DNA of 64,000 nt from Patescibacteria group bacterium (GTDB lineage Bacteria; Patescibacteriota; Patescibacteriia; 2-12-FULL-57-11): the NCBI GenBank assembly GCA_004297205.1, contig SCUL01000002.1:722893-786892 (forward strand), given 5' to 3'. Under the pieces are notes generated by a model. That model saw nothing but the letters and a program-made list of their open reading frames with translations. It was not told the DNA's origin and did no database searches. The translations under genes and the position numbers were made by a program. Shown here piece by piece: positions 38,552-62,560 of the stretch. The stretch's first letter is position 1; each line of letters opens with the position of its first letter.

Positions 38552-40843
38552 ATGCGTGCGATCAGTGTCATTACGTTCTCGTTTGTTGTCGTTGGTTGTG
38601 TCACGGAGGAGGGACGCGGTGGAGCGCTCACCTCGATCACGAGTGACGATGCAGGAGTGTCCGAACACCCGCTGCTCCTCCTGCCGTTCCCGAACCGGAC
38701 CGCGTACCAGTGTGTCCAGGGAGCCGGAGGTTCCTATAGCCACTCTGGTCGGTCGACCCGGTACGATCTCGACTTCGATACTCCCAATGACAGGAACGAG
38801 GTCGTCGTCGCACCGGCAAGCGGGGTTGCCTACATCCACCGTTCCACGGTCGGATTCGGCAATCACGTCAACATCGACATCGGCGGCAACCTGTTCACGG
38901 TCGCGGCCCACCTCCGGAGTTTCCTCGTCGAGGATGGTCAGGAGGTGCTCGTCGGTCAGCCGATCGGGATCGAAGGTACGACCGGCAACTCGATGGGGGA
39001 CCACATCCACTTCGGACTCCACCGCGGTGACCCGAGGGAAGATGCGGCCCTGAGCGATTCGATCCCCGCCGAGAGGATCGTCGCGCGGGATACGTTCGGG
39101 AGCGGCGGGTTCCGCGAATTCCGTTCAGCGGACTTCATCTGTGACCTCGATTGGGGCCACTCGTACGAGTCCAACAACGGAGTGACGCGGCACCCGGTCG
39201 GGACGCTGATCAAGGAGCATGGCCGTCCGGAGATCTATCTCGTCTGCGCGGACGGGGCGATCTGCTGGATCACGAGCGAGGACAACTTCCTCTCGCGGAG
39301 GTTGTACTACTCGCACACCGACCAGTGGGCGCGCGTCGTCGAAGTCAGCCGCGAGGAGATCGACTGCTACGATCGTGGACCGGACTTGGACTACCCTGTG
39401 ACCATGCGGTTCCGGAGGTGCCGGGTTTCCGCATGGTCAAGCGAACGCGCGGTGTACCTCGCCGTCGACGACCGGGGCAACCGCTTCCGCCGGCGCGTTC
39501 CTGTCCCTGAGGGGACCGAGGAGTTCGTTGCCCTCCTTCGATCCTGGGGATTCTCCCCGGTCGAAATCGAAGAGGGGGGAGAGGCCTGCTCCTACGCCGA
39601 GGGAGAGACGCTGTACCTGCGTGACGGGACCGTCGTGCAGGAGGCGTCCGATCCGCGTTTCCGGATCATCTCCAACGACGGTCTGGCATACCGACTCGAT
39701 CCGTTGGATGCCTGGTCGATGCGTTTCCTGCCGCGTCATGTCCTGCAGGCACCGGACGGTGCAACCACTCTGTTGATCCAAGGCGTCGATCCCGACCACC
39801 GCTGGTGGACGAGGGAAGACTCAACGGCATGCCGGACGCCGAGTCCGCCCGGAACCCCGGGCGGCGGCGGAACGGGGGGCGACGGCTCCGATGCCGGCCC
39901 GCTGCCTATGCCCGACGCGGGGGTGCCCTCCGCGCCGGATGCCGGCACCGTCTGCACGCCGCGCGCCGAGACCTGCAACGGCCTCGACGACGACTGCGAC
40001 GGGAGCATCGACGAGGGTGACGCGTGCCGCGTCTGCGTCGCCGGGAGCGAACGCTCCTGCGTGACGTCGTGCGGCTCCGCCAGCGTCCAGGTCTGCTTCT
40101 CGGACGGTTCCGGTTGGAATCCCTGCCGCATCCCGGCGGAGACCTGCGGCAACGGCCGGGATGACAACTGCGACGGATACGTCGACGACGGCTGCTGCAG
40201 GCCCTCCACGGAGACCTGCGACGGCCGCGACAACGACTGCGACGGCGTCATCGACAACGGTGGCGTCTGCGCTCCGCCGCCCGCCTGCGTGGGCGGAAGC
40301 GACCGCGTCTGTACCACGTCCTGCGGATCGACCGGTTCGCAGCGCTGCTACAGCGACGGACACGGCTGGGCGTCGTGCCGGCCGCCGGACGAGATCTGCA
40401 ACGGTCTCGACGACGACTGCGACGGTCTCCGCGACGAAGTCTGCGCTCCGCCGCCGACGCCCGATGCGGGGCCGCCGTCCGTACCGGACGCGGGTCCCGC
40501 CTCGTGCGGACACGCGGTGCGGGTGCGCTTCTCGGCGTACGCCGGATCGTGGAGCTTCGGCTCCGGCTTCGGCACGCCGCACCCCTCCTACGAGGCGGTG
40601 GCGGGTGCCGTCGACCGGCTGTGGAGCTGTGCCGCCCCCGGTTGGCTGCTCCTGAACGGCAGCTTCCCGGGCGGCGCCTGGATGTGCGGCGAGTGGCCGG
40701 CGGGCACCTTCCAGGTGCCGTACGGCCTGCCGGAAGTCACGGTCGACGGGATTCCGGCCACCGTCACGCCCTGGCACAACCCGGAGATCCCGGGCGGGAT
40801 CGGCTGCGACCTGCGCGTCTGCGTGGGCGGCGGCTGCCCCTAG
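38552..40843 (+). CDS. M23 family peptidase lipoprotein with MopE-like Cys-rich repeats
   Basis: Lipobox VVVGCVT. LytM/M23 motifs HVNIDIGG...GTTGNSMGDHIHFGLH. Four CxGxDDDCDGxxDE repeats each followed by CxTSCGSxxxQxCxxDGxGW. AAGGAG RBS. Confidence 0.75.
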   Translation: MRAISVITFSFVVVGCVTEEGRGGALTSITSDDAGVSEHPLLLLPFPNRTAYQCVQGAGGSYSHSGRSTRYDLDFDTPNDRNEVVVAPASGVAYIHRSTVGFGNHVNIDIGGNLFTVAAHLRSFLVEDGQEVLVGQPIGIEGTTGNSMGDHIHFGLHRGDPREDAALSDSIPAERIVARDTFGSGGFREFRSADFICDLDWGHSYESNNGVTRHPVGTLIKEHGRPEIYLVCADGAICWITSEDNFLSRRLYYSHTDQWARVVEVSREEIDCYDRGPDLDYPVTMRFRRCRVSAWSSERAVYLAVDDRGNRFRRRVPVPEGTEEFVALLRSWGFSPVEIEEGGEACSYAEGETLYLRDGTVVQEASDPRFRIISNDGLAYRLDPLDAWSMRFLPRHVLQAPDGATTLLIQGVDPDHRWWTREDSTACRTPSPPGTPGGGGTGGDGSDAGPLPMPDAGVPSAPDAGTVCTPRAETCNGLDDDCDGSIDEGDACRVCVAGSERSCVTSCGSASVQVCFSDGSGWNPCRIPAETCGNGRDDNCDGYVDDGCCRPSTETCDGRDNDCDGVIDNGGVCAPPPACVGGSDRVCTTSCGSTGSQRCYSDGHGWASCRPPDEICNGLDDDCDGLRDEVCAPPPTPDAGPPSVPDAGPASCGHAVRVRFSAYAGSWSFGSGFGTPHPSYEAVAGAVDRLWSCAAPGWLLLNGSFPGGAWMCGEWPAGTFQVPYGLPEVTVDGIPATVTPWHNPEIPGGIGCDLRVCVGGGCP

Positions 40844-40923: not shown

Positions 40924-43626
40924 ATGCGGAACGCATTTTCCCGTTTCATTGCCGCATTCCCGGGCCGGAGATTGGCGCTGCCAGTCGCGTTGTTGGTATT
41001 CGTCGGCGTGTTCGGACTGGCCGGCCACGTCCATGCGGAAGGGCCGCTCTCCGGGATCGAACTTGCCATCGCCAACATCATCGGCAGCATCGCCGTGTTG
41101 TTCGGCTGGGCGATGACGCAGATCCTCCTGTTCCTGACGGAGTTTTTGGTGGCCGTGGCCGGCTACAACGAGTTCGCCACCGCCGACGCCGTGGACCGCG
41201 GTTGGGTGATCGTGCGCGACCTCACGAACATGTTCTTCATCCTGGTGATGCTGATCATCGCCTTCGGCACGATCCTGGGGGTGGAGGAGTACAGCTACAA
41301 GCGCATGCTGCCCCGGCTCTTGATCATGGCCGTGGTCATCAACTTCTCCAAAGTCATTTGCGGTCTGCTGATCGATTTTTCGCAGGTCGTGATGCTGACC
41401 TTCGTGAACGGATTCTCCGCCATCGCCGGCGGCAACTTCGTCCGGATGTTCCAGGTTTCCGGCGCGTGGAACATGATCAACACGAGCAATGACGCATTGC
41501 TTGCCTCCGAAGCGAGTTTCACATGGGCAACGGTCGGCTCCCTGGTGTTGGGCGGCGTGCTGATGATGGTCGCGGCCGTGGCCGTCTTCATCATGACCCT
41601 GATGCTGGTCGGACGCATCGTCATGTTGTGGCTCCTGATCGTGATGTCGCCGCTGGCATTTTTCCTCTCCGCGTTTCCCAAAGGGAAAGCAGCGGAAATG
41701 TACGGCAAATGGTGGGGGATGTTCGGCAACTACGTGATCATCGGGCCGTTCATCGCCTTCTTTCTGTGGTTATCCCTGGCCGTGGCCGGATCCGGCGAGA
41801 TCGCCAGCTCCATGCAGATCGTCCGCGAAGGCGCGGGTGGCGCGGGGACCTCGTTGTTCGTCTCCGACCTCGGCGGCCAGCAGCAGTTCTACTCTTTCGT
41901 CATTGCTATCGCGCTTTTGATGGGCGGCATGTCCATGTCCGCGCAGTTCGGCGTGATGGGCGGCAGCATGATGTCCGGCGCGGCCAGCTACATCCAGAAC
42001 AAAGGCGTCGGCGCCGTGAAGGGGACGGGACGCCTCATCGGCCGGACGGCGCGGCTCGGTGATTCGTGGGTCGCGACGAAGACCGGAGGCGTCAGCGTCG
42101 CTTCGGTCCTTTCGATTCCGCGCCGTCTTGGTGAAGGCACGGAGGCTCGCATCAAGGACAACTACGAGAAAGGAAAGAAGGAAGCGCTCTTGGGTTTGCG
42201 CGAGGGCGGCATCAAGGGCCGCATCCAGGGCTTCGTAGGCGCCTCCGACGAGGTGGCACGGAAAACGGGCATCATTCAGTTCGCCGGCGGAGCCGTCGCC
42301 GCGACGGCACGCGCCATTCCGCAATGGGTGAAGAGGGAAGGATCGAACCGCAGCACCTATCTTCAAAAAGCGGAGGAGGCGCAAAAAGAGGCAGACACCG
42401 AGAAATCCAACAAGGAGGCGGCGGAGCGGGAGAAGGCGGCTGCGGAGGAAACGCTCAAAACGAAGCGCGCTGAGATGGATCGTCTGGACAGCGTCGATGT
42501 CCGTCCGCGGGATTTTGCCCAGCTTCAGTCGTTGCGTGACAGCGCCGAGAAGGCTGGTATGGCGAACCAAGTCTCGGCGTTGGACACCATCATCAACAAG
42601 GGGCGGACCGGGGCGGCGGTTACAGGTGGAGACATTGAGACCTTGCAGGGGACGGGCGTGGGCGGGCCGCTCATGAACCGTTTGGTCGAACAGGCAGAGA
42701 GCAAGCGTCGCTCGCTCGGCGCCACGTACGACGCAAAACGCGCGGAGATCGCGGCTGCCGCAGGGGCCGTTGCCACTGCGGAAGCGAACTTCAATTCGTC
42801 GTCGAGCGCGGAGGCGGCCGCAAAGGCCCGTGTCGAGAAGTGGACGAAGAGTGCGGACAAGACCGGCGTTTCCGGTTTCGGTCCGGAAGTGCCCAAGCAT
42901 GCCATGGATGCCACGGTCACCTCGGCGATGCTCGACGAGGCGCTCAAGGCCAAGGACTACACCTTGGCGCAGCAGCTCGTGGTTAAACTGGGTGAAGACG
43001 GTGAACTCGCCGAGGCCTTGAAGATGCGCAAGCATGGTGAAGGCCTGGAAGGCGTTAAAGCCTTCGCCAAGGAGCTCCAAGGCAAGGGCATGAGCCACAG
43101 CTCGACTATGACTGCGCTGTCCGAAGTCGACTCCAAGTACAAGGCCAAGGGCAATACGGAATATTCCGGCATGATCAAGGGTGGTCCGGGCGGTCGGCTG
43201 CGCTTCGTCAACAACGACGGCGACAGTCTTGAGTATGGGGCGGGCCGTCTCAAGTCCGGCAGCAAGGGGAGCATGGAAAGCAAGCTCCGGGAGGCCAACA
43301 AAACGTCGTTGTTCCAGGTGTCCGACGCAAAAGGCGGCAAGGTCATCGACGCAGCAGGCGCGGCGCTCATCGCCCAGAGCATCGGTGCCATCGTCAAAAC
43401 GGTGGAGAGCAACCGCATGTCCGGCGACATGATGCGCATGTTCGTCGATAAACAGAAGGAAGTCTTGCAGGCCGTTCAGGATGCCGGCATTGCTGCCAGT
43501 GACAAGCGGTTCGAGCAGCTCAAGGACGCCATCGGCAAGATGACGGAACAGATGAAGAGCGTGCCGCCGGACGTCGGCGACGCCATCCGCAAGGTCTACG
43601 CCGCCAAGAAAGCACGCGGCGCATAA
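40924..43626 (+). CDS. VirB6/TrbL-like multi-TM protein with long Ala/Lys/Glu-rich C-terminal extension
   Basis: Signal peptide, then about 8 TM helices with a TrbL-like organisation (aa 1-350), then a roughly 550-aa hydrophilic coiled-coil-like tail. Start moved to ATG 40924; the upstream extension overlaps the M23 gene and terminator. Confidence 0.65.
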   Translation: MRNAFSRFIAAFPGRRLALPVALLVFVGVFGLAGHVHAEGPLSGIELAIANIIGSIAVLFGWAMTQILLFLTEFLVAVAGYNEFATADAVDRGWVIVRDLTNMFFILVMLIIAFGTILGVEEYSYKRMLPRLLIMAVVINFSKVICGLLIDFSQVVMLTFVNGFSAIAGGNFVRMFQVSGAWNMINTSNDALLASEASFTWATVGSLVLGGVLMMVAAVAVFIMTLMLVGRIVMLWLLIVMSPLAFFLSAFPKGKAAEMYGKWWGMFGNYVIIGPFIAFFLWLSLAVAGSGEIASSMQIVREGAGGAGTSLFVSDLGGQQQFYSFVIAIALLMGGMSMSAQFGVMGGSMMSGAASYIQNKGVGAVKGTGRLIGRTARLGDSWVATKTGGVSVASVLSIPRRLGEGTEARIKDNYEKGKKEALLGLREGGIKGRIQGFVGASDEVARKTGIIQFAGGAVAATARAIPQWVKREGSNRSTYLQKAEEAQKEADTEKSNKEAAEREKAAAEETLKTKRAEMDRLDSVDVRPRDFAQLQSLRDSAEKAGMANQVSALDTIINKGRTGAAVTGGDIETLQGTGVGGPLMNRLVEQAESKRRSLGATYDAKRAEIAAAAGAVATAEANFNSSSSAEAAAKARVEKWTKSADKTGVSGFGPEVPKHAMDATVTSAMLDEALKAKDYTLAQQLVVKLGEDGELAEALKMRKHGEGLEGVKAFAKELQGKGMSHSSTMTALSEVDSKYKAKGNTEYSGMIKGGPGGRLRFVNNDGDSLEYGAGRLKSGSKGSMESKLREANKTSLFQVSDAKGGKVIDAAGAALIAQSIGAIVKTVESNRMSGDMMRMFVDKQKEVLQAVQDAGIAASDKRFEQLKDAIGKMTEQMKSVPPDVGDAIRKVYAAKKARGA

Positions 43627-45602: not shown

Positions 45603-47027
45603 ATGGCAGAAAACGGCCAAAAACAAGCCAAAAACGATGATGTCGTGATTCCGGTCAAATCCGGTGATCACGTCAGCCTGGTTTCCTTGGGAAACAAGGC
45701 TTTGGCGAAGTCCGTGCCGGCTGCAGCAGGGGACGTAGACAAGGCCGTCTCCCTGCTCGTCCATCCGGACTGGGATGAGGAAAAACGCGCCCGGCTGAAA
45801 CAGCTCGCGCTGTCCTTTTTTTCCGACGTCCGTGACCGCCTGGAACTGCGGGAGGACCTGCAATCGGCCTGGGAGCGGGGCGGCTTGGGCGTTGATGCCG
45901 ACGAGGCGGGGTATATGGTCGGCGTGCTTGGTGCGGTGCGCGACGGGGGATCTCTTCCGGTGCGCCCGGCATCGAAGGTTTCCATGATGCAGCAGCCTTC
46001 CGTGACGACGGCACCGGCCGCGCCTGCCATTGGAGTGAATATTGCCCCTTCAGCCCCAGCGCAGAAAGCGCCGGCTCCCGCCGCTCCGGCACAGATGGTG
46101 GTTGCCCGCTCCGAATTCGCTGGCAAGCGACGCGAGGAGATTTTTGCGGTGCTGGCCAAAGAGATCGTCGACGAGGTCAAACCGCAGCTGGCCGATCCGG
46201 CATTGCATTCCCGGCTGGAAGCGCTGATCGCCACGCGGTTCCGCGGCGTCCGGGATGCCAATGAGGTGCGCGCCCACATGAAGCGCGACGCGGCGCAGGG
46301 CGGCCTCAGCATGACGCCGGCAGAGATCGAGCGTGTCATGACCGTGGTCGAGGACCGCTTCGCCAAAATTTCGAAGGAGCTCCACGCCCAGGAGAAGGGA
46401 TTGGTGATGGAGGGGCTCAAACAGGAGTCCTCCGCCGGCCGCGCCCAGAAGCAGGGGGCGAGCAGCGATCTTCGGGAGTACGAATCCAATCAATGGTACG
46501 AGAAGCGTTTCGAGCGCCAGCCGCAGACGCCGCCTCCGCCCGCACCCAAAGCGCCGCCGGTGCAGGCACCCCCTCCCGCTCCCCCTTCTGCAAGCCTGCC
46601 TGCCGGCAGGCAGGGGGGAGGGAAGCCGCCTGCGGAAGTCGCGGTCGCCGCGCCGCCGGTGCAGGCACCCCGGCCGACCATGCAGGACGCCGAATACCGT
46701 CCCCGGCTGCTCGGCCCCGTTGAGGAGCTCCGCAGCATGACGCTCGACGACTTCCGACGCCTGGCGCGCGATCCTAAGGAAGCGGCGCGCCGCATCCAGG
46801 ATAAAATCCGGCTGCTCGAGGAGGAGGACTACACCCAGCGCGCTGCGGCCATCGCCGCCTGGCGGGGGTCCGTGCCGGTCAAAACGTATCTGGCCGTCAC
46901 GCGCACCATGTTCGACCAGGGAATCGGTCCGGAACAGGCCGTTGCGGCGCAAGGTACGGGCCCGGACGCGCTGACGCTCGAGGAATACAATGCTATAATG
47001 GAGTTGCAGAATTCCTTGAGATACTAG
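45603..47027 (+). CDS. hypothetical protein with Pro/Ala-rich low-complexity region; contains the 20-nt palindrome in-frame
   Basis: 474 aa. PPPPAPKAPPVQAPPPAPPSASLPAGRQGGGKPPAEVAVAAPPVQAPRP. The CCTGCCTGCCGGCAGGCAGG palindrome at 46595-46614 encodes LPAGRQ. Confidence 0.45.
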   Translation: MAENGQKQAKNDDVVIPVKSGDHVSLVSLGNKALAKSVPAAAGDVDKAVSLLVHPDWDEEKRARLKQLALSFFSDVRDRLELREDLQSAWERGGLGVDADEAGYMVGVLGAVRDGGSLPVRPASKVSMMQQPSVTTAPAAPAIGVNIAPSAPAQKAPAPAAPAQMVVARSEFAGKRREEIFAVLAKEIVDEVKPQLADPALHSRLEALIATRFRGVRDANEVRAHMKRDAAQGGLSMTPAEIERVMTVVEDRFAKISKELHAQEKGLVMEGLKQESSAGRAQKQGASSDLREYESNQWYEKRFERQPQTPPPPAPKAPPVQAPPPAPPSASLPAGRQGGGKPPAEVAVAAPPVQAPRPTMQDAEYRPRLLGPVEELRSMTLDDFRRLARDPKEAARRIQDKIRLLEEEDYTQRAAAIAAWRGSVPVKTYLAVTRTMFDQGIGPEQAVAAQGTGPDALTLEEYNAIMELQNSLRY

Positions 47028-47459
47028 ATGCCAGGACAGTACACGGTGCCGCAATTCATCGACGTCGAGGACAAGATTCTGGGTCCGCTGACGACCCGGC
47101 AGTTCGTGATCATCCTCGGCACCTTCGGCGTCGATTTCCTCCTGTACCGGCTGCTGCAATTCGGTTTCTTCCTGCTGATCGGCCTGCCGGTCTTCCTGGC
47201 GGGGATCACGCTGGCCTTTGCGCGCGTCAACGGGCAGCCGTTCCACTTTTTCCTGCTGAATCTGATTCAGACCTACCGCCGTCCGGACGTCCGCGTTTGG
47301 AACAAAGAGCTCTCCGAGGCGGAATTGCGGATGCTCATCAGCCGCCCGCCGCCGCCCGCGCCGCCCGTCAAAGTCCGCAAAGAAGCCCTTACCACCTCGA
47401 AGCTTTCCGAGCTCTCGCTCGTCGTGAACACGGGCGGCGTCTACCGCCCGGAAGACTAG
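47028..47459 (+). CDS. PrgI/VirB3-like small membrane protein
   Basis: YTVPQFIDVEDKILGPLTTRQFVIILG followed by two TM helices matches the PrgI family N-terminal pattern. The ATG abuts the upstream stop. Confidence 0.55.
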   Translation: MPGQYTVPQFIDVEDKILGPLTTRQFVIILGTFGVDFLLYRLLQFGFFLLIGLPVFLAGITLAFARVNGQPFHFFLLNLIQTYRRPDVRVWNKELSEAELRMLISRPPPPAPPVKVRKEALTTSKLSELSLVVNTGGVYRPED

Positions 47460-47592: not shown

Positions 47593-48267
47593 ATGGCCAG
47601 CAAAGCCGCCAGCGCAAAGCGTCCCAGCACCCAGCAGTTTTTGGACATCGCCGAAATCAAGGAGGACGTCGTCATCATGAAGGACGGCACGCTCCGGGCG
47701 GTGCTGTTGTGTTCGTCCGTCAACTTCGCCCTGAAGTCGGAAGAGGAGCAGGAGGCCATCATCTCCGCCTACGTCGGCTTCCTGAACGCGCTCGAATACC
47801 CGCTCCAGATCGTGGTGCAGAGCCGGAAGCTGAACGTCGAGGAATACCTGAACCGTCTGTCCGAGGCGCAGCGTACCCAGACTAACGAACTGTTGAAGGC
47901 GCAGATCGCCGACTACCGGCAGTTCGTGTTCGAGCTGATTTCGCTCGGGCAGATCATGAGCAAGCGTTTCTACGTCGTGATTCCGTACGATCCCATGACC
48001 AACAAGCGCAAGGGGTTCTTCGCCCGGATGCGGGAAACGCTCGTGCCGGCGCTCTCGTTGCGGCTGCGCGAAGAGCAGTTCCGCCAGCGGCGCAAGGATT
48101 TGCTGTTGCGCGTCGACAGCGTCGCCTCGAATCTCGGCTCCATGAGCGTCTCCGCCGCCGTGCTCGACACCCAATCGTTGATCGAACTCTATTACACCGC
48201 CTACAACCCGGACGTCGCCGATTCGGAGAAGCTGACCGACGTCGGCAAAATGCGCATCGAAGCCTGA
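47593..48267 (+). CDS. virB4: VirB4/TraC-type N-terminal domain protein (split VirB4, part 1)
   Basis: QQFLDIAEIKEDVVIMKDGTLRAVLLCSSVNFALKSEEEQE matches the VirB4 N-terminal consensus. Stop TGA is 1 nt before the ATG of the ATPase ORF. Confidence 0.6.
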   Translation: MASKAASAKRPSTQQFLDIAEIKEDVVIMKDGTLRAVLLCSSVNFALKSEEEQEAIISAYVGFLNALEYPLQIVVQSRKLNVEEYLNRLSEAQRTQTNELLKAQIADYRQFVFELISLGQIMSKRFYVVIPYDPMTNKRKGFFARMRETLVPALSLRLREEQFRQRRKDLLLRVDSVASNLGSMSVSAAVLDTQSLIELYYTAYNPDVADSEKLTDVGKMRIEA

Positions 48268-48268
48268 T

Positions 48269-50173
48269 ATGGCCTTCCAACCCTTCAAAGCGCTCCGCGG
48301 CAAGCGCGCCCCGATCGATGTCGGCGGCACGCTGGTGACGGACACCGAAGCCAAGAAGAAGATCGCCGTCGAAAGGGAAGCGCTCGAGGAAGAGCGCGTG
48401 TATCGGCGCGGCACCGTCTCCATCAAGGATCTGATCGCTCCGGCGGCGATGAAGGTCGAACCGTCGCACGTGCTGCTCGGCGACATGTACGTGCGCACCA
48501 TCTTCGTCGTGACCTATCCGCGCTACGTTTCCGTGGGGTGGTTCACGCCGATCCTGAATTTGAACCTGATGCTCGACGTGGGCATGTTCTTCTACCCGGT
48601 GAAGGCCCACATCATCCTCAAACAGCTCAAGAACAAGGTCGGTACCATCGAGGCGCAGATCCTTTCGGACGCGGAAAAGGGCGCGCCGCGCGATCCCTTG
48701 CGCGAAACGGCGCTGCGCGACATCGAAAAGCTCCGCGACGACCTGACCCAGGGGATCGAGCATTTCTTCCAATACGCCCTCTACGTCACGATGTACGCCA
48801 AGAGCAAGGAAGAGCTCGACCGTTACACGCAGGATGTGGAGAACATTTTCGGCGGCAAGCTGATCTACAGCAAGAAAGTCTTCTACCAGGCGGAGCAGGG
48901 CTTCAACTCCACGCTCCCGCTCGGCAACGACGAGCTGCAGATCACCTTCAACATGAACAGCTCGCCGATCGCCTCGAGCTTCCCGTTCACCTCGGCCGAC
49001 CTGACGTCGGACAACGGCATTCTCTACGGCATCAACCGCCACAACAATTCACTGATCCTGTTCGACCGTTTCTCGCTGCAGAATGCCAACGCCGTGGTCT
49101 TCGCCACCTCCGGCGCCGGAAAATCGTACGCCGTGAAGCTCGAAGTGCTCCGCTCGCTGATGCTCGGCACCGACGTGCTGATCATCGACCCGGAAATGGA
49201 GTACAAGCATCTCTCGGACGCCGTCGGCGGCGCCTACATCAACATTTCGCTGGCTTCCGATTCCAAGATCAATCCGTTCGAGCTGCCGCGCCCGGTCGGG
49301 GAGCAGGTTTCGGTCGAGGACATCATCCGGAGCGCCGTCATTACATTGAAAGGCCTGATCCGCCTCATGCTCGGCGGCAAAATAACGACGGCCGAAGACT
49401 CGATCATCGACCGCGCGCTTCTTGAAACGTACGCCAAAAAAGACATCGTGCCGGGCGCGGACCTGTCGCGCGTCGAGCCGCCGATCTTCCAGGATTTCCA
49501 GGAAGTACTCCAGGGTATGGAAGGCGCGGGCGACCTGGTGGAGCGGCTCAAGAAATACACGGAAGGCACCTTCGCCGGTCTCATCAACTCGCCGACCACG
49601 GTCGACATCCGGAATTCCCTCGTCATCTTCTCGGTCCGCGACCTGGAAGACGAACTGCGGCCGATGGCCATCTACACCATCGTCAACTTCATCTGGAACG
49701 TGGTGCGCTCCGAGCGCAAGCGGCGCATCCTCGTCATCGACGAAGCCTGGTGGCTCATGCAGCATGAGGATTCGGCCAAGTTCATCTTCGCGCTGGTGAA
49801 GCGCTGCCGCAAATACTACCTGGGCGTCACCACCATCACCCAGGACGTCAACGACTTCCTGACGTCCCCCTACGGCCAGGCCATCGTCACCAACTCCTCG
49901 CTGCAGATGCTTTTGAAGCAGTCGCCGGCCTCGATCGAGCTGATCGCCAAAACCTTCCTGCTGACGCAAGGGGAGAAATATCTGCTGCTCGAGAGCGGGG
50001 TCGGTGAAGGCATTTTCTTCGCCGGACAGAAACACGCCGCCATCAAGATCGTGGCCTCGTACGCCGAAGACCAGGTCATCACCTCCGACCCGCGGCAGCT
50101 GCTCGAAATCGAGCAGGCCAAGAAGGAATTCCAACAGCAGTCCGCCGCCGCGGAAGGCGCTCCCGCCGTATGA
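48269..50173 (+). CDS. virB4: VirB4/TrbE-family type IV secretion ATPase (part 2, ATPase domain)
   Basis: Walker A VVFATSGAGKSYAV and Walker B RRILVIDEAWWLM. 634 aa. Confidence 0.85.
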   Translation: MAFQPFKALRGKRAPIDVGGTLVTDTEAKKKIAVEREALEEERVYRRGTVSIKDLIAPAAMKVEPSHVLLGDMYVRTIFVVTYPRYVSVGWFTPILNLNLMLDVGMFFYPVKAHIILKQLKNKVGTIEAQILSDAEKGAPRDPLRETALRDIEKLRDDLTQGIEHFFQYALYVTMYAKSKEELDRYTQDVENIFGGKLIYSKKVFYQAEQGFNSTLPLGNDELQITFNMNSSPIASSFPFTSADLTSDNGILYGINRHNNSLILFDRFSLQNANAVVFATSGAGKSYAVKLEVLRSLMLGTDVLIIDPEMEYKHLSDAVGGAYINISLASDSKINPFELPRPVGEQVSVEDIIRSAVITLKGLIRLMLGGKITTAEDSIIDRALLETYAKKDIVPGADLSRVEPPIFQDFQEVLQGMEGAGDLVERLKKYTEGTFAGLINSPTTVDIRNSLVIFSVRDLEDELRPMAIYTIVNFIWNVVRSERKRRILVIDEAWWLMQHEDSAKFIFALVKRCRKYYLGVTTITQDVNDFLTSPYGQAIVTNSSLQMLLKQSPASIELIAKTFLLTQGEKYLLLESGVGEGIFFAGQKHAAIKIVASYAEDQVITSDPRQLLEIEQAKKEFQQQSAAAEGAPAV

Positions 50174-51454: not shown

Positions 51455-51548
51455 GGAGAGGTACCCAAGTGGTTGAAGGGGGGAGATTGCTAATCTCCTA
51501 GGTCGGGGTCTTCCCGGCGCGAGGGTTCGAATCCCTCCCTCTCCGCCA
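51455..51548 (+). tRNA. tRNA-Ser(GCT), type II, CCA encoded
   Basis: Acceptor GGAGAGG/CCTCTCC, anticodon stem GGAGA/TCTCC, loop TTGCTAA (anticodon GCT), long variable arm, T-arm GAGGG-TTCGAAT-CCCTC. Confidence 0.85.
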
Positions 51549-51549
51549 C

Positions 51550-51639
51550 GGAGAGGTGCCCGAGTGGTTGAAGGGAACGGTCTTGAAAACCGTAAGGCCA
51601 GCAATGGCCTCGTGGGTTCGAATCCTACCCTCTCCGCCA
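51550..51639 (+). tRNA. tRNA-Ser(TGA), type II, CCA encoded
   Basis: Acceptor GGAGAGG/CCTCTCC, anticodon stem ACGGT/ACCGT, loop CTTGAAA (anticodon TGA), variable arm GGCCAGCAATGGCC. Separated from the previous tRNA by 1 nt. Confidence 0.85.
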
Positions 51640-51655
51640 AAGGTAATTCCATTCT

Positions 51656-52159
51656 ATGGAGGACACGCAGAACACGTTCCGCGGCCCGCACGGCGAGGTG
51701 CATTTCGCCTGGATGGTCGACGAGTATCCCGTCTACCGTCGCGGCTGGGCCTGGTACCTTGTCGCCGACATCATCGGCGCGGGCATGGTGCTGTACGCGT
51801 TGGTGACGCTGAACTTCCTGTTCGCGCTCATCGTCGTCATCTTCGGCATCGTGCTGACGCTGTCCGCCGCGCGCCGTCCGGTGCGGCTCCGGTTCGCGGT
51901 CACGGAGGACGGCCTTGAAATGGGACACCGGTTCGTTCCTTGGAAGGACCTGTCGCGGTTCTCCGTGGTGTACGATCCGCCGGCCGTGAAGACGTTGTAC
52001 TTCGACTTCAAGAGCGCGATGGTGCCAGATTTGGCCGTGCCGCTCGAACAGATGAATCCGAACGTCGTGCGCAAAGCGTTGCTCACCTACATCGACGAAG
52101 ACCTGACGCGCGACTCCGAGCCAGTCACCGACTACCTGGCACGCGTGCTGAAGTTTTAA
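51656..52159 (+). CDS. hypothetical membrane protein
   Basis: 167 aa with two TM helices. No family. Confidence 0.4.
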   Translation: MEDTQNTFRGPHGEVHFAWMVDEYPVYRRGWAWYLVADIIGAGMVLYALVTLNFLFALIVVIFGIVLTLSAARRPVRLRFAVTEDGLEMGHRFVPWKDLSRFSVVYDPPAVKTLYFDFKSAMVPDLAVPLEQMNPNVVRKALLTYIDEDLTRDSEPVTDYLARVLKF

Positions 52160-52170
52160 GAAGAAGGAAC

Positions 52171-52247
52171 GCAGCCATAGCTCAGCTGGATAGAGCGTCA
52201 GCTTGCGGAGCTGAAGGTCGTTGGTTCGACTCCAACTGGCTGCACCA
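52171..52247 (+). tRNA. tRNA-Arg(GCG), CCA encoded
   Basis: Acceptor GCAGCCA/TGGCTGC, D-arm GCTC..GAGC, anticodon stem TCAGC/GCTGA, loop TTGCGGA (anticodon GCG), T-arm GTTGG-TTCGACT-CCAAC. Confidence 0.75.
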
Positions 52248-57359: not shown

Positions 57360-58586
57360 CTAATACACGCTGACGTGAATATGGTCGTAATGGCCGCACA
57401 TGGTGCGGGCGCCGATGGTGGCGTTGAAGCGGCCCTCGTTCATGAGCAGCGGTCCCGTGGCCGTGCCGGTACGGGTCGAGCCCTCGCAGATAACCTCGTC
57501 GCGGCTCAGTTCGTAGTGGCCGAAGACGTCCTTGATGCGCACGAGTCCCGGACGCGCGATCGTCTCCACGATGTAGCGTTGCAGCGCGGCGTTGTTGGCG
57601 AAGTCGATGCCGCGACCGTCCCAGTGGTTGGACTCTCCCTCATGGCCGCCCGATCGCGCGCTTTCCATGCATGCCGCGCAGCGCACGCGGCCTTCCGCGG
57701 TGTCGGCGCGGCCGGACGCGCAGCGGCTGTGGTTGCCGATCAAGGTCGCAACGCGCAGCGGGCCGCTCAGATCGCCGCGCGCCTTGGCCTCGCCCAGCAG
57801 GACGAGGAAGCGGCAGGTGTTCGGGGAGAGTTGGACCCCGGCGGCGTCGCCTTCGTCGAAACAGGCACCGCTCGAACTGCGGTCATTGCTGCCGTTATAG
57901 CACCAGATGCAGGCGTTGCGGGTGATGGTTCCTCCCGCGAGAATGCCGGCCCGGTCGTTTGGGCGCGAGATGCCGATGGTGCCGTCGGTCACCAGTTCCG
58001 CGAGACGCGTGCAATCGGCGCTCGTCGCTTCCGCGCCCCCTCCCGCACCTCCGGCGGGCGGCGTATACGTTCCCGGATCGATGTCCGCTTCCGATGCCGC
58101 GGGGTCTTCCACCCGCCGCACCAGGTCGACGCGGATGCTGCGGAAATTCACGAGCTCGGGGTTGATCAGGTAGAGGATGGTGTAGCTCCCGAGCGCGAGC
58201 AGGAGCCCCATGATCGCGCGGATGATGGTGTCCCTGGCGGCGCCGATCGTCGAAGCGTTCCCGGCCGCCGTGACCCAGCGGATGCCGCCGATCACGATCA
58301 TGACCATGGCGAACGTCACGATGACGCCGATCGAGAAGCGGTAGATGGCGAGGATGTATTCGGCGACGAAGGGGATGTCCACGTACCGGTTGCCGCCTTC
58401 GCCCTGCACCACGAGCGTGGAAAAGGAAGGGAGCGTCGGGATGGGCAGCTGGAGGGTGGGTACCGCCGGCGTGAACGGGAGATTGGCGTTCTCGTTCACG
58501 GTCGCGGCCTGCGCCAAGGACGGAAAAAGCAGGCAGGTGAGCGCGGCAACCAGGACGCGTTTGGTGAGCTCGTGCATAGCCGTCAT
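57360..58586 (-). CDS. membrane-anchored cell-wall hydrolase-like protein (paralog A; M15-like C-terminal domain)
   Basis: Signal peptide MTAMHELTKRVLVAALTCLLFPSLAQA. Conserved N-terminal module with two hydrophobic helices shared with paralog B. C-terminus SNHWDGRGIDF...GHYDHIHVSV resembles the zinc D,D-peptidase (M15/VanY-like) HxxxxxxD...HxH arrangement. ATGA overlap with paralog B. Confidence 0.55.
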   Translation of the reverse strand: MTAMHELTKRVLVAALTCLLFPSLAQAATVNENANLPFTPAVPTLQLPIPTLPSFSTLVVQGEGGNRYVDIPFVAEYILAIYRFSIGVIVTFAMVMIVIGGIRWVTAAGNASTIGAARDTIIRAIMGLLLALGSYTILYLINPELVNFRSIRVDLVRRVEDPAASEADIDPGTYTPPAGGAGGGAEATSADCTRLAELVTDGTIGISRPNDRAGILAGGTITRNACIWCYNGSNDRSSSGACFDEGDAAGVQLSPNTCRFLVLLGEAKARGDLSGPLRVATLIGNHSRCASGRADTAEGRVRCAACMESARSGGHEGESNHWDGRGIDFANNAALQRYIVETIARPGLVRIKDVFGHYELSRDEVICEGSTRTGTATGPLLMNEGRFNATIGARTMCGHYDHIHVSVY

Positions 58587-59776
58587 TCCACCTGGATTAT
58601 TCTGGTCAGCAGCCCGCCGCAGCTGCTCCTGATGCAGATCGTACCAGCGCTGACGAAGTTCCCATAGCCGCCGTTCACGACGTTGGCGCGCCCGCCGCCG
58701 GCAGGGCTCACGAAGATCGCGGAATGCTGGCCGGCCACACTGCCACTCGTGAGTCCGTTGGCGTTGTAGATCCAAAAGACGTCTCCCGGCCGGAGCGTGT
58801 CCGCCCAGGTATCGGGCCAGACGCTTTCGCCGAAGTGGCTGCGCAGCGCGACATACGCCGCCTCCTGGGAGGTTCTCGCGCATTCGGACACGCTTTTTCC
58901 CGAGGAAACGCAGGCACGCCCGGCTTCTTGATGGGGCCGGAGCAGGGAAGAGTTCGTTTCCATGCCGGACGGATAGACGAGGCGCGCATGCGCGATGTCC
59001 CGGACGATGGTTTCCCAGGTGTTCCCGCAGGAGCCCATGTGGACGCCGCACTTCACGGCGGCGTCGGCGATGTGCAGCACGCGCGTCCGTGCCGGTTCCG
59101 ACGCATACCGCGCCGAGGCGGCCTCGATGAACTGGCGCGTCCGTTCTTCCCTGTCGGGTGCACCGCATCTCACGGCCGCGCTGAGCGTGAACGGGCATTC
59201 CGGAAACGAGGGAAGCGGTTCTTCGTCGCACGCCCGCAGCCCGAGGCTGCCGCGTTCCCCCGGCGCCCAGGTCGGCTCGCGCGTGGTACGCATCTCGCTG
59301 GCGACATCCACCGTTCGCACCAGGTCGACGCGCAGCGCCCGAAAGTTCACGAGTTCGGGATTGATGATGAAGAGAATGGTGTAGCTGCCGAAGGCGAGCA
59401 GGAGTCCCATCACGGCGTTGGTGATGCGCGTCTTGGCCGTCTGGATGGTTCCGGCGTTGCCGGCGGCCGTCATCCATTGGATGCCCGCGACGACGATCAT
59501 GACCATGGCGAGCGTCACCATGATGCCGAGCGCGTAGCGGAAGATGAGGACGACGTACTCGGCAATGAAGGGGACGTCGACGTAGCGGTTTCCTCCTTCG
59601 CCCTGCACCTGGAGCTTCGAGAATCCCGTATAGCCCGGGATGTAGACCGCCGGCTCCGGCACGGCCGGCGTGAACGGCACATTTTCATTGACCTCCGCGG
59701 CCGCCGCCGGAGAGGCGGCCAACGCACAAAAAAACACGACAAGAACCAACAGGGACGCGCGCGTCGGGAACCGCAT
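58583..59776 (-). CDS. membrane-anchored cell-wall hydrolase-like protein (paralog B; Cys/His amidase-like C-terminal domain)
   Basis: Signal peptide MRFPTRASLLVLVVFFCALAASPAAAA. N-terminal ~160 aa closely similar to paralog A (QGEGGNRYVD, LINPELVNFR). The C-terminal domain has Cys/His residues suggestive of a CHAP/NlpC-P60-type fold. Confidence 0.5.
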   Translation of the reverse strand: MRFPTRASLLVLVVFFCALAASPAAAAEVNENVPFTPAVPEPAVYIPGYTGFSKLQVQGEGGNRYVDVPFIAEYVVLIFRYALGIMVTLAMVMIVVAGIQWMTAAGNAGTIQTAKTRITNAVMGLLLAFGSYTILFIINPELVNFRALRVDLVRTVDVASEMRTTREPTWAPGERGSLGLRACDEEPLPSFPECPFTLSAAVRCGAPDREERTRQFIEAASARYASEPARTRVLHIADAAVKCGVHMGSCGNTWETIVRDIAHARLVYPSGMETNSSLLRPHQEAGRACVSSGKSVSECARTSQEAAYVALRSHFGESVWPDTWADTLRPGDVFWIYNANGLTSGSVAGQHSAIFVSPAGGGRANVVNGGYGNFVSAGTICIRSSCGGLLTRIIQVE

Positions 59777-59826
59777 ACGGCCCCATGATATCAGAAAACC
59801 GGCCTGTGGGGGCCGGTCTTCGGCGT

Positions 59827-60456
59827 TCAGGGCAAGGCGTTCAGGATCTCATTCGCGGAGACGAAGCCGGAGAAACGGCGGTCACCGACGAAGAGAGAGG
59901 GGACGCCGTCGAGGCCGAGCGCGAGGGCCTCATCCACCGTGCGGTCGACGAGCGGCTTCATCGCGCCGGAGTCGATGCAGGCGAGCAAGGTGTCGGCGTC
60001 CACGCCCGCCTCGTCGGCGAGCGGACCGTAGAGCGAGACGTCGGCCGGGGGGCCCGAACGCATCAGCACGTCGTGCATCTCGAAGTAGCGTCCCTGCCGG
60101 CCGGCGCACAGCGCCGCTTCGGCCGCGGTCTGGGCGAACGGATGCTGGTTTCGGAAGGGCAGGTTCTTCCAGACGAGGCGCACCTCCGGCCGGGCGGCCA
60201 TGACCGCCGCAAGTTCGGGCTCGAGCGCGCGGCAGTAGGAGCATTGGTAGTCGCCGAAGACGACGATCGTCGGGCCGGTGCCGCCGCGCATCGGGTCGGC
60301 GATGGTGACCTCCGGCGCCGTGCGCGCCGCCGGCAGGTTCCGGTTGCCGTTGGTCGTGCCGCGTGAGGTGTTTTCCAGGACGAGCGTGCCGAAGATGACG
60401 AGGAGCAGCGCCGACAGGGCGAAGAGAAAGATGACCGGAAGCGGCGGGCGCTGCAT
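59827..60456 (-). CDS. DsbA-family thiol:disulfide oxidoreductase
   Basis: N-terminal TM anchor and a CSYC active site inside a thioredoxin-like fold (IVVFGDYQCSYCRALEP). Confidence 0.7.
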   Translation of the reverse strand: MQRPPLPVIFLFALSALLLVIFGTLVLENTSRGTTNGNRNLPAARTAPEVTIADPMRGGTGPTIVVFGDYQCSYCRALEPELAAVMAARPEVRLVWKNLPFRNQHPFAQTAAEAALCAGRQGRYFEMHDVLMRSGPPADVSLYGPLADEAGVDADTLLACIDSGAMKPLVDRTVDEALALGLDGVPSLFVGDRRFSGFVSANEILNALP

Positions 60457-60460
60457 AGCC

Positions 60461-61690
60461 CTAGGGCGCCAACCGGATCTGGCGCAGCAAGTTGCTGCCG
60501 GACTCCACGAAGGTCAGGTTTCTGCCGTCCTCGGACAGGATCAGGTTTTTCATGGTGGAGTTCGAGTCCGGCCGGGCCACGAGTTTGCGGGCGCCGGTCG
60601 AGATGTCGACGCTGTAGAGGTCGTCCGGCACGTTGTCGGCGAGGCGCCGCTCCAGCCCGACGCCGCGCTCCAGCGTCCGCGGTACGGCGCAGTACACCGT
60701 GGTGCCGCTGCCGAAGGCGCATTTGTCGGCCCAGGTGTTCAGGTTCAGTTTCCGCCGGCCGGCGCCGATGCTGTCTCCGTAGCCCTCGACGATCCAGAGC
60801 ATCGGACGGTAGTCGTCGTTCGGTGAGACGGCGCTGTAGAGGAGCCGCTTGCCGTCCGGCGTCCACTTCGACGTGAAGTTCAAGCCTTCGACGATCAACC
60901 CCTTGAAGTTTTCCTTGTTCTGGCCGATGGGGATGATTTCCTGGCGGCCGAATCCCTGCGCGTCGCCGGTGCGCGACAGCGCGATGACCTGGCCGGTCGG
61001 CGAAACGTTCACCGCGACCTTGGATTCGTTGTTGCCGAGTTCCTGCACCGGCCGCGCGCTCGAGCCGTCGGCGTTCGAGACGACCAGCCAGCGGTTCGAG
61101 GGGTCGATGCCGAGACTCTTGCTCACCAGCTGGCTGGAGTCGCTGGTGAATTCAAACTCCTCCCAGTGGCGGGGGAGCGTGACCTGCCGCTGGCTGCCGA
61201 AGTCGAACAGGATGTTGGAACCGTCCGGGAATTCCAGCACGGCCTTGTCTTCGGTCGGCGCCCAGGCCACGGTGTCGACGTTGGCGAAGCGTTTGTCGGA
61301 CAGGGCGATCTTTTCGCCGGTCTCCGGGTCGATGCGGTAGAACTTGCCGTCATCCTGGTCGTAGTAGCGCACGGCGTCGCCCTCGGGGCTGGCCGAGGCG
61401 GCGGACACGGAGACGGGCGTCAGCGACGGGGTTGCCGTCAGCCCGCCGTTGGCGATCGGCGCGGCACGTTCGGCCGGAGCGATGCCGCCCGCCGGCGCGT
61501 TCGTGGGGGGAACGAAGCCGCCGCCGGCACCGGCAGGCGCGAGCCCGCCGCCGGCACCCGGCGCATTCGCGTTCGTCACGACCGCGGGCGGGGGAGCGGT
61601 CGGCGGACGGAAGAAGAAAAACCAGAGCGCGAAGCCGACGCCGAAGGTCACGGCGAGGAACGCGATGACGGGCAACATCCTCCTGAGCAT
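60461..61690 (-). CDS. membrane-anchored beta-propeller protein (TolB-like)
   Basis: N-terminal TM, a Gly/Pro/Ala-rich linker, then repetitive propeller-like blades (LSRTGDAQGFGRQ, LYSAVSPNDDYRPMLWIVEG). Confidence 0.45.
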   Translation of the reverse strand: MLRRMLPVIAFLAVTFGVGFALWFFFFRPPTAPPPAVVTNANAPGAGGGLAPAGAGGGFVPPTNAPAGGIAPAERAAPIANGGLTATPSLTPVSVSAASASPEGDAVRYYDQDDGKFYRIDPETGEKIALSDKRFANVDTVAWAPTEDKAVLEFPDGSNILFDFGSQRQVTLPRHWEEFEFTSDSSQLVSKSLGIDPSNRWLVVSNADGSSARPVQELGNNESKVAVNVSPTGQVIALSRTGDAQGFGRQEIIPIGQNKENFKGLIVEGLNFTSKWTPDGKRLLYSAVSPNDDYRPMLWIVEGYGDSIGAGRRKLNLNTWADKCAFGSGTTVYCAVPRTLERGVGLERRLADNVPDDLYSVDISTGARKLVARPDSNSTMKNLILSEDGRNLTFVESGSNLLRQIRLAP

Positions 61691-61693
61691 ACG

Positions 61694-62560
61694 TTAACTG
61701 GTGAAATAGGTGACGAGGGCCTCAAGGCTGCTGCCGACCGAGGAACAGACGTCCGGGTAGGTGAGACAGAAGCCGACGAGGGTGCCGCCGATAGCCGCCG
61801 CGATGATCAGCGGCACGGCGATCATGATAAGGAAGTTTACCATGACGACGAGCGCCAGCAGAATATCGACCACGACGAGGACGAAGATCTGCCAAATCGC
61901 CAGCTTTTTGACCTCGAACGGGTCGCCGCCGGAGGAGGCTTGGGACGGTCCGGACTCGGTGCGCGGAGCCTGCGTCCGGGTTCCCGCGCCGCCGCCAAAG
62001 TCGCCGCCGCCGAACGATCCGACGCTTTTCCCGCCCGCGCCTGCGGCGGACGACCCGGCGGATTTTGCGGTGGCGGAACCGGCGGCTTTGCCTGCGGTTT
62101 TGGCGCCGGCACCCGCCACCTCCATGCACTTGTCGAGGAACAGGGAGAGCGGACCGCCTGCCTCGGGAAGGACACCGATGTTTCCGCTCAGGAACCGGAC
62201 GTGGTAGTTGGCGAGCAGGATGAGCGGCACGATGATCGTTTCGATCTCGATGGCCGCGGTCAGCAGGTCCATGATCTCTCCGGCCGTGTCCGTGACGAGC
62301 GCAATGTCGTTTCCTCCGCCGCCCTCGCCTTTGCCGCGCGCGGCGCTGCGTTGGCTGGCGGAGAGGGCGCGGGCGGCCTGCGCCTCTTCTTCCTGGGATT
62401 CCAGTTCGGCGATTTCTTCTTCCTCGGCTTGGATCACGGCGGCCTGCACCTGTTGTCGACGCGCCGCCTCGCGTTGGGCCGCAGCCAATTCGCGCGCGGC
62501 ATTCGCCTCGGCGAATCCGCCGTATGAGCCGCCGCTGGGAAACTGCAGTGCCTCCGCCAT
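61694..62560 (-). CDS. hypothetical membrane protein
   Basis: Acidic coiled-coil N-terminus, a Gly/Ala/Ser-rich middle, and a C-terminal pair of TM helices. 288 aa. Confidence 0.4.
   Translation of the reverse strand: MAEALQFPSGGSYGGFAEANAARELAAAQREAARRQQVQAAVIQAEEEEIAELESQEEEAQAARALSASQRSAARGKGEGGGGNDIALVTDTAGEIMDLLTAAIEIETIIVPLILLANYHVRFLSGNIGVLPEAGGPLSLFLDKCMEVAGAGAKTAGKAAGSATAKSAGSSAAGAGGKSVGSFGGGDFGGGAGTRTQAPRTESGPSQASSGGDPFEVKKLAIWQIFVLVVVDILLALVVMVNFLIMIAVPLIIAAAIGGTLVGFCLTYPDVCSSVGSSLEALVTYFTS

Follow-up and report, generated by a model that had tools for sequence, protein, structure and literature searches.

Several Gram-positive conjugative systems of the monoderm type carry PrgK (pCF10), TraG (pIP501), TcpG or CwlT (ICEBs1), extracytoplasmic peptidoglycan hydrolases on an N-terminal hydrophobic tether that combine a glycosidase (SLT) and a Cys/His peptidase on one polypeptide, have a simple transmembrane (TM) anchor and are encoded inside the type IV secretion system (T4SS) operon. 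Filament subunits with a grafted functional globular module are known from the modular type IV pilins PilB/PilC of Streptococcus sanguinis and from flagellinolysin flagellins, in which the filament could present an adhesive or enzymatic function. Patescibacteria account for much of bacterial diversity, and their cultured members are attached to other cells. VirB2-like pilin arrays are common in this phylum and essential in one species, Southlakia epibionticum (PMC12102498, PMC10633639, PMC12857230); in the one species tested genetically, the T4SS-like system is essential along with the pilin array (PMC10633639). Most Patescibacteria genomes with VirB2-like pilins have no recognisable VirB1 (PMC12102498). 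The subject of this report is a pair of adjacent genes, A and B, on the minus strand of a window of 64,000 nt (positions 722,893 to 786,892 of contig SCUL01000002.1, assembly GCA_004297205.1) from a Patescibacteria group bacterium. We lean towards reading their products as Patescibacteria-specific modular T4SS pilins with interchangeable, disulfide-rich, probable peptidoglycan-hydrolase C-terminal domains (heads) that open the wall for a T4SS-like machine.

The locus resembles the arrays described for Patescibacteria in its phylum, in matching the pilin hidden Markov model (HMM) at family level, in its tandem divergent paralogues and in the VirB3/VirB4/VirB6-like system without relaxase or coupling protein. 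Those arrays are described as small pilins, whereas here the modules bear catalytic-type heads of 220-400 aa, the heads vary and not just the pilin sequence, and a DsbA gene is a constant neighbour. In contrast to PrgK, TraG, TcpG and CwlT, A and B have one head each on a pilin hairpin, lie outside the VirB4 operon in this window and are undetected by SLT, CHAP or NlpC HMMs. The SLT plus CHAP content of PrgK and TraG is paralleled in relatives, cited here by their L and P labels, by an A-type gene with an SLT fusion (L006) and an A-type gene with a GDSL-SLT fusion (L003). An earlier interpretation made from the letters of the window (the sequence-only reading) had likened the pair to PrgK, TcpG and VirB1; the likeness holds for the peptidoglycan-hydrolase heads of relatives and the predicted extracytoplasmic C-terminal domains, and fails for the single heads, the pilin anchor and the position outside the VirB4 operon. 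PilB/PilC and flagellinolysin are type IV pilus and flagellar subunits, whereas the modules of A and B are of the VirB2 type. To our knowledge, no conjugative (VirB2-type) pilin with an enzyme module has been described. No description of pilin-hydrolase fusions was found in the searchable literature, and the supplementary tables of PMC12102498 hold no entry for this genome or these domain combinations.

Genes A and B and their shared pilin module

Gene A (NCBI EPO33_05260; 58583..59776, minus strand) was defined from its open reading frame (ORF) and translation; it encodes 397 aa, identical to P0007, and consists of a signal peptide, a VirB2-like pilin module and a Cys/His C-terminal domain. 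Gene B (NCBI EPO33_05255; 57360..58586, minus strand) encodes 408 aa from the overlapping ATG (MTAMHELT), or 405 aa as annotated, and consists of a signal peptide, a pilin module and a rare Cys-rich C-terminal domain. Both are carried on an 855,898-bp contig in the NCBI record. As the sequence-only reading had it, two minus-strand ORFs fill the stretch exactly and overlap by ATGA at 58583-58586, which is the stop of gene A and the first ATG of gene B; the start of gene B is ambiguous. Two in-frame ATGs 9 nt apart lie at 58575-58586 (minus strand), and the NCBI start is the second (58577). A Shine-Dalgarno-like hexamer, GGTGGA, is located 9 nt 5' of the second ATG and directly abuts the overlapping one. 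Since the second ATG has the better Shine-Dalgarno spacing, the ATGA overlap is present but may be unused; the spacing between the genes is at most 5 nt whichever start is taken.

The two proteins were aligned using BLASTP, which gave 94/166 identities (57%, E = 3e-59) between A aa 10-172 and B aa 11-176, a similarity far above chance. The shared N-terminus, put at about 160 aa by the earlier reading, thus measures about 165 aa. No significant similarity was found by BLASTP past this region, and the C-terminal halves are unrelated. By hydropathy, both proteins begin with a signal-like hydrophobic stretch, whose last residues are AAA in A and AQA in B, and continue with two long hydrophobic helices. 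In A the hydrophobic segment covers residues 1-30, and the predicted Sec-type signal peptide is aa 1-27, MRFPTRASLLVLVVFFCALAASPAAAA (59696..59776, minus strand), with an AxA-type end read from the sequence at which cleavage would occur.

The pilin module was assigned to aa 34-156 in A (59309..59677, minus strand) and aa 37-159 in B (58110..58478, minus strand). PF18895 (T4SS_pilin) matches A over residues 78-129 with 25.0 bits (E = 2e-5) and B over residues 81-137 with 18 bits (E = 0.003), both just below the gathering cut-off of 26.6 bits; a local module HMM matches B at E = 4e-44. Relatives with the same module pass PF18895 outright (P0018, 35.0 bits; P0013, 31.7 bits; two L009 proteins, 32.9 and 33.8 bits). 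Among 104 A-type family members, PF18895 matches 82 (E <= 0.05, best 2.1e-11), NCBIfam NF045849 ("Mbov_0395 family pilin-like conjugal transfer protein") matches 33 (best 1.7e-8) and TrbC/VirB2 matches 6. Judged at family level and through these relatives, the shared N-terminal part of A and B is a VirB2-like T4SS pilin module and not a generic anchor. It had been described earlier as a two-helix membrane module; the helices are there, by hydropathy and in the AlphaFold2 (AF2) model of A, and the pilin identity, which ties the pair to a T4SS more directly than the proposed link did, had been missed. In the window, the broad module HMM found pilin modules in A and B only and no stand-alone pilin.

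In A, a conserved PFTPAVP...QGEGGNRYVD beta-hairpin (56-68), a helix (70-103), a loop, a second helix (108-138) and the junction NPELVNFRxLRVDLVR make up the module. The AF2 model of A, with a mean predicted local distance difference test (pLDDT) score of 90.2, has a helical hairpin with helices of 34 and 31 residues at pLDDT above 90, and a short strand within the conserved junction segment that follows. The loop between the helices, TAAGNAGTIQTAKTR, is short, contains K and R and fits a leader plus two-helix pilin layout. In the predicted topology, the leader is removed, both the N-terminus and the C-terminal domain face outwards, and the short basic loop is in the cell.

Relatives and exchange of the heads

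The pair occupies one slot in a conserved gene order: clpB, a gene of ~270 aa, a PD40-like gene of ~405 aa, dsbA, the fusion genes, radA, a small gene and recG. In relatives, the dsbA-radA slot holds one to three pilin-fusion genes. The window has an A-type and a B-type gene, L001 has the B-type only and L018 the A-type only, and L002 and L008 have a B-type, an A-type and a third fusion, which in L008 is VanX-like M15. L003 combines an A-type gene with GDSL-pilin-SLT, L006 combines an A-type gene with pilin-SLT, L009 has three fusions, and the slot of L014 (GC 46%, RadA 47% identical) holds M15_4-pilin-Amidase_2. Same-slot fusions have Pfam matches above the gathering cut-off to SLT (8e-10), Amidase_2 (2.3e-16) and Peptidase_M15_4 (2.9e-14), and matches just below it to VanY (4e-4, 20.6 bits vs 25) and Peptidase_M15 (9e-6, 26 bits vs 27). 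The combinations found on the pilin module of relatives are SLT, GDSL with SLT, Amidase_2 with M15_4, VanY-like and VanX-like; P0019, P0020 and an L009 protein of 566 aa are fusions without a recognisable enzyme head. The RadA proteins of L018, L008 and L001 are 86-91% identical to that of the window, yet their slots differ, and head content therefore changes among close relatives.

The exchange point is visible when the L018 A-type protein is compared with the B-type protein P0002. The two are ~90% identical over ~240 aa, a stretch that runs from the signal peptide through a Cys-rich extension and the pilin module to RVDLxR; past it, the identity falls to ~20%. The L018 protein (P0004) had been shortened by the gene caller, which placed a spurious 33-aa gene in the gap; its true start is L018:4509. 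The extension is an extra Cys-rich segment of ~100 aa between signal peptide and pilin module, present in L018:4509-5951, P0002, P0006, P0015 and P0016 and absent from A and B. The module identity matrix is at odds with head type: the module of window A is 86% identical to that of the VanX-like fusion vs 66% to that of window B, and the module of window B is 88% identical to that of the A-type P0004. At L009:6770-11519, three tandem fusions have modules 89-98% identical and different heads, which suggests recent duplication or gene conversion limited to the module. The cross-cutting identities point to recombination at the junction and to gene conversion inside the arrays. The domain-swapped duplication that had been proposed for A and B is confirmed by the BLASTP result, the module identity matrix and the L018/P0002 pair. 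A mobile-element origin of A and B was considered and rejected, as no relatives were found in IMG/VR viral contigs, INPHARED phages or PLSDB plasmids.

An N-region that is kept while the C-terminal domain is abruptly replaced, as in L018 A-type vs P0002, is also the pattern of polymorphic toxins. The proteins could accordingly be polymorphic antibacterial effectors, with the pilin-like N-terminus as a trafficking domain and the C-termini as toxins aimed at competitors or hosts. The sharp replacement behind a conserved N-region of ~240 aa would suit such effectors, as would the arrays of one to three genes whose modules are homogenised within a genome (L009, 89-98%) and the rapid turnover of head content. 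We nevertheless regard effectors as quite unlikely. There is no candidate immunity gene at A and B: A runs directly into B, overlapping or abutting it, and B ends 16 nt before radA with no intervening ORF. The recognisable heads are all wall hydrolases, where polymorphic toxins would typically be nucleases, deaminases or pore-formers, and a membrane-embedded hairpin is no known T4SS effector signal.

C-terminal domain of gene A

The head of A (aa 183-397; 58586..59230, minus strand) is an unannotated Cys/His domain and a putative papain-like (CHAP/NlpC-P60-like) peptidoglycan peptidase or amidase, in which C250 (codon 59027-59029) and H351 (codon 58724-58726) are the candidate catalytic residues. 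A profile of the C-terminal 215 aa retrieved 195 cluster representatives (50% identity clusters) among 1.84e9 proteins, and the domain is C-terminal in nearly all of them. The pilin module was found upstream by the local HMM in 119 of the 146 representatives examined (the listed matches minus those already found), and most of the others are fragments. No Pfam, NCBIfam or PHROGs model covers the domain, no match to PF05257, PF00877 or related models (CHAP, NlpC/P60) was obtained at E <= 1, and the profile gave chance matches only against PDB sequences. The 104 A-type family members have only two single weak matches to related models, DUF1175 and Amidase_6. Head A is a new domain family, widespread and unannotated.

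In an alignment of 147 head A domains, H351 is conserved at 100%, C250 at 93%, G331-D332 at ~100% and six more Cys at 86-97%. The AF2 model places C250 at the very start of helix 250-261 and H351 at that of strand 350-360, with the PGD motif running into strand 333-337. A Cys at the start of a helix with a His on a strand is the papain-fold arrangement of NlpC/P60 and CHAP enzymes. Head A resembles these (PlyC CHAP, Spr/MepS) in this Cys position, in the PGD strand followed by the His strand and in the alpha + beta order, and differs from them in matching no HMM, in the ~100 residues between Cys and His, in two inserted helices, in eight additional Cys and in forming its own family of 195 clusters. 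The nine Cys of the mature head would fit one free catalytic thiol and four disulfides.

A Foldseek search of the PDB with the model of A gave PlyC as the best match (E = 0.023, prob 0.84), followed by the S. aureus amidase 5t1q, C. glutamicum Cg1735 and PlyPy, over a range of E = 0.02-1.4. CHAP/NlpC wall hydrolases take 8 of the 10 best rows and 4 of the 5 best distinct PDB entries, each match being weak. As CHAP/NlpC structures are a tiny fraction of the PDB, this enrichment is read as meaningful. When head A was compared with the sequences of E. coli Spr and LysK using hhalign, just one short alignment was obtained, of the PGD...H351 segment with the catalytic-His strand of Spr (P = 0.007; 22.6 vs shuffles <=16.2), which is a lead only. 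The Cys/His amidase-like domain proposed earlier for A is in keeping with the conserved Cys and His and their placement in the model; CHAP or NlpC/P60 HMM support was not obtained, and the fold matches are sub-significant. We consider it likely that head A is a papain-like hydrolase.

C-terminal domain of gene B

The head of B (aa 187-408; 57363..58028, minus strand) is a putative LAS/M15-like zinc peptidase, as judged by two motifs on the minus strand, S319-N-H-W-D-G-R-G-I-D328 (57603-57632) and D401-H-I-H404 (57375-57386). The VanY/M15 motif SxHxxGxAxD is matched by SNHWDGRGID with Gly for Ala, and DHIH matches D/ExxH. H321-x6-D328 with the downstream D401-H-I-H404 has the form expected of zinc ligands, as a pattern match. 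Head B is a rare orphan domain. A search of 5.8 billion clusters gave just two full-length orthologues, P0002 (75% identity) and P0003 (55%); beyond the clusters, it occurs in one GTDB genome and two metagenome fragments. It has 10 invariant Cys and two CxxC, and both motifs are invariant in the 3 orthologues. The earlier M15/VanY-like claim is right in that both motifs exist (B 319-328 and B 401-404); it gained no HMM support, and the structure model failed.

Isolated head B and its two orthologues gave no Pfam match even at E <= 10 (PF01427, PF02557, PF13539 and PF08291 included), and head B matched nothing in NCBIfam, PHROGs or PDB sequences. hhalign scored head B at 25.6 against the head of P0013 (shuffle maximum 17.6) and at 18.0 against the T5 endolysin (shuffles 15.4), both weak and leads only; against VanX the score was weak and only slightly above shuffles. 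Head B thus shares with LAS/M15 enzymes (VanY, VanX, phage T5 endolysin) the S-x-H-x-x-G-x-[AG]-x-D motif and the C-terminal D-x-x-H, and sister fusions have M15-type matches. It differs from them in lacking HMM, profile-profile or PDB-sequence support and in a large Cys-rich insertion with two CxxC. On the motifs, we give a slight edge to head B being an M15-type zinc peptidase with H321, D328 and H404 as putative ligands.

One or both heads, especially that of B, could instead be non-catalytic binding or adhesion modules that are displayed on the pilin and recognise a wall or host surface, much as in the modular type IV pilins of S. sanguinis. No homology of head B to an enzyme family was detected, its many Cys include two CxxC that may be purely structural, and P0019, P0020 and the 566-aa protein of L009 likewise carry heads in which no enzyme domain is recognised. 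Set against this are the H-x6-D ... D-x-x-H pattern, which is unchanged across B orthologues 52-75% identical, the invariant His and 93%-conserved Cys of A in a catalytic-like geometry, and the many sister fusions with real enzyme domains. Of the alternatives to hydrolase-bearing pilins, we find adhesion modules the least probable.

Genomic neighbourhood and T4SS genes

A membrane-anchored DsbA-like thiol-disulfide oxidoreductase (59827..60456, minus strand; PF01323 DSBA, 68 bits; TM aa 2-31) is encoded immediately upstream of A. The dsbA gene directly precedes the fusions in L001, L002, L003, L006, L009, L014, L016 and L018, and in L016 this adjacency is kept though the remaining synteny is lost. 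The gap from the dsbA stop codon to gene A contains, at 59790-59822 (minus strand), an 11-bp GC-rich hairpin and after it a U-run (-21.5 kcal/mol, z = -2.1), which may be a terminator or attenuator; it was not called by a consensus scanner, and the gap is shorter in relatives.

The T4SS genes of the window are on the plus strand. They are a PrgI/VirB3-like gene (47028-47459; PF12666, 44 bits), a TraC-like gene of 224 aa (47593-48267; its orthologue is annotated PF26593 TraC-like in L006 and L013) and a VirB4-like ATPase gene (48269-50173; PF19044, P-loop_TraG, 94 bits), the last ~7 kb from A and B. A candidate extended VirB6-like polytopic protein is encoded at ~40924-43626 (plus strand); it has at least six hydrophobic segments and a hydrophilic tail of ~550 aa and no Pfam match, and is proposed from this architecture. 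The 474-aa gene just 5' of prgI (45603-47027, plus strand) was tried as VirB6-like and rejected, as hydropathy shows no TM segment; relatives keep this gene (465 aa in L006), whose soluble product is rich in Pro and Ala. The VirB4/VirB6 module expected ~7 kb from the pair is therefore there as far as VirB4 and the PrgI/VirB3-like gene go, while the gene adjoining prgI is not VirB6-like and the VirB6-like candidate lies at ~40924-43626.

A and B and the VirB4 module are on opposite strands and are parted by three tRNA genes, recG and radA. The tRNA genes, tRNA-Ser(GCT), tRNA-Ser(TGA) and tRNA-Arg(GCG), lie with a gene for a 167-aa membrane protein at 51455-52247 (plus strand), between the VirB4 module and recG. 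VirB4 is within 10 kb of the fusions in every long contig examined (window, L003 and L006). In one distant relative of low GC, L013, the fusion P0013 is placed inside the VirB4 cluster, as had been proposed for checking, in the same-strand order PrgI, TraC-like, VirB4, three genes and P0013.

This neighbourhood also bears on whether the fusions are housekeeping autolysins, in which the hairpin would be a mere membrane anchor of pilin ancestry and the enzymes would remodel the cell's own wall in growth and division with no T4SS role. The slot from clpB through dsbA and the fusions to radA and recG is conserved and is kept in the distant L014 (RadA 47%), the fusions of the window are not co-oriented with VirB4, and peptidoglycan is still made (murI and glmM lie close by in L001, L003 and L006), hence autolysins are needed. 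A housekeeping set is, however, unlikely to switch between Cys peptidase, metallopeptidase, lytic transglycosylase and amidase at RadA identities of 86-91%; the anchor is specifically of the conjugative-pilin family, and the L013 fusion is inside a T4SS operon. Autolysins are in our view an unlikely explanation, if the least unlikely of the alternatives.

In L019 and L021, distant pilin-fusion genes are located beside rpmH-rnpA-yidC and dnaA-dnaN (replication origin); L021 also has a small gene, faintly matched by NlpC_P60, between two genes with the pilin module. T4SS genes beside the dnaA origin region have been reported for some Patescibacteria (PMC12102498).

Proposed function

In the favoured reading of A and B as modular T4SS pilins, both proteins would be exported by their Sec signal peptides, and the VirB2-like two-helix hairpin would either hold them in the membrane or be extracted from it. 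The heads would be oxidised, probably by the DsbA encoded immediately upstream. Head A would most likely act as a papain-fold Cys/His peptidase or amidase through C250 and H351, and head B possibly as a LAS/M15 zinc peptidase that binds its metal through H321, D328 and H404. Together they would supply VirB1/PrgK-like wall cutting for the nearby VirB3/VirB4/VirB6-like machine. The target may be the cell's own wall, opened to let the apparatus through, but is more probably that of the cell to which the epibiont attaches. Heads are traded between lineages by recombination just past the NPELVNFRxxRVxLxR junction, which explains why close genomes carry different enzyme sets. We infer from the quick turnover of enzyme type among close relatives that the target varies, as a partner-cell wall would, and is not the own wall.

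Several points weigh against this reading. The neighbours of A and B are the housekeeping genes dsbA, radA and recG, and the VirB4 module is on the other strand, so that the proximity to VirB4 could be plain synteny among close relatives. The M23 peptidase encoded just upstream of the VirB6-like candidate (38552-40843, plus strand; 763 aa; Peptidase_M23, 58 bits, with MopE-type metal-binding repeats) could itself be a T4SS-associated wall hydrolase and could supply the lytic function. Because of this gene, that function is not obviously missing from the T4SS module, as the sequence-only reading had assumed. HMM searches for M15, CHAP and NlpC/P60 domains in A and B, which should have backed the proposed hydrolases, gave none in Pfam, NCBIfam, PHROGs or PDB sequences. 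With the model of A, Foldseek found nothing at E <= 1e-3 in PDB or BFVD. The AF2 model of B, built from a 3-sequence alignment, has a mean pLDDT of 38.9 and is unusable, also for recognising a Hedgehog/DD-peptidase fold, since head B is too rare for a useful alignment, and the likeness of this head to any M15 protein stays at the level of motifs. Polymerisation of the pilin module and its interaction with a T4SS are proposals.

Pilin modules that carry their own hydrolase would explain the absence of VirB1 from most VirB2-bearing genomes, and A and B suggest how ultrasmall cells of Patescibacteria/Candidate Phyla Radiation (CPR) breach cell walls. The fusions are concrete candidates for biochemistry, and with their cassettes exchanged sharply at a fixed junction they form a natural system in which to study how uncultured epibionts adapt their host range. 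In a bolder form of the proposal, which we hold to be improbable to much the same degree as effectors, the T4SS-like machine would build or cap a VirB2-type pilus with peptidoglycan-cutting heads that drill the host wall, and the heads would be swapped by recombination to match host wall chemistry. If true, this would be the first enzyme-bearing T4SS pilin, and it would account both for VirB2-bearing Patescibacteria being mostly without VirB1 and for the access of epibionts to the host membrane.

Other features of the window

Two genes without Pfam assignment lie between clpB and dsbA (60461-62560, minus strand) and are always found in relatives. One product (409 aa) is TM-anchored and has a PD40/TolB-like region; in the other (288 aa), the N-terminal half is acidic and the C-terminal segments are very hydrophobic. 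Both, like the fusions, may be parts of one envelope module. A single ORF of 3038 aa fills 24612-33728 (plus strand), with a coding-type GC content at third codon positions (GC3) of 0.85 and an N-terminal hydrophobic signal-like segment; it looks like a giant secreted or surface protein and is located ~7 kb upstream of the T4SS neighbourhood.

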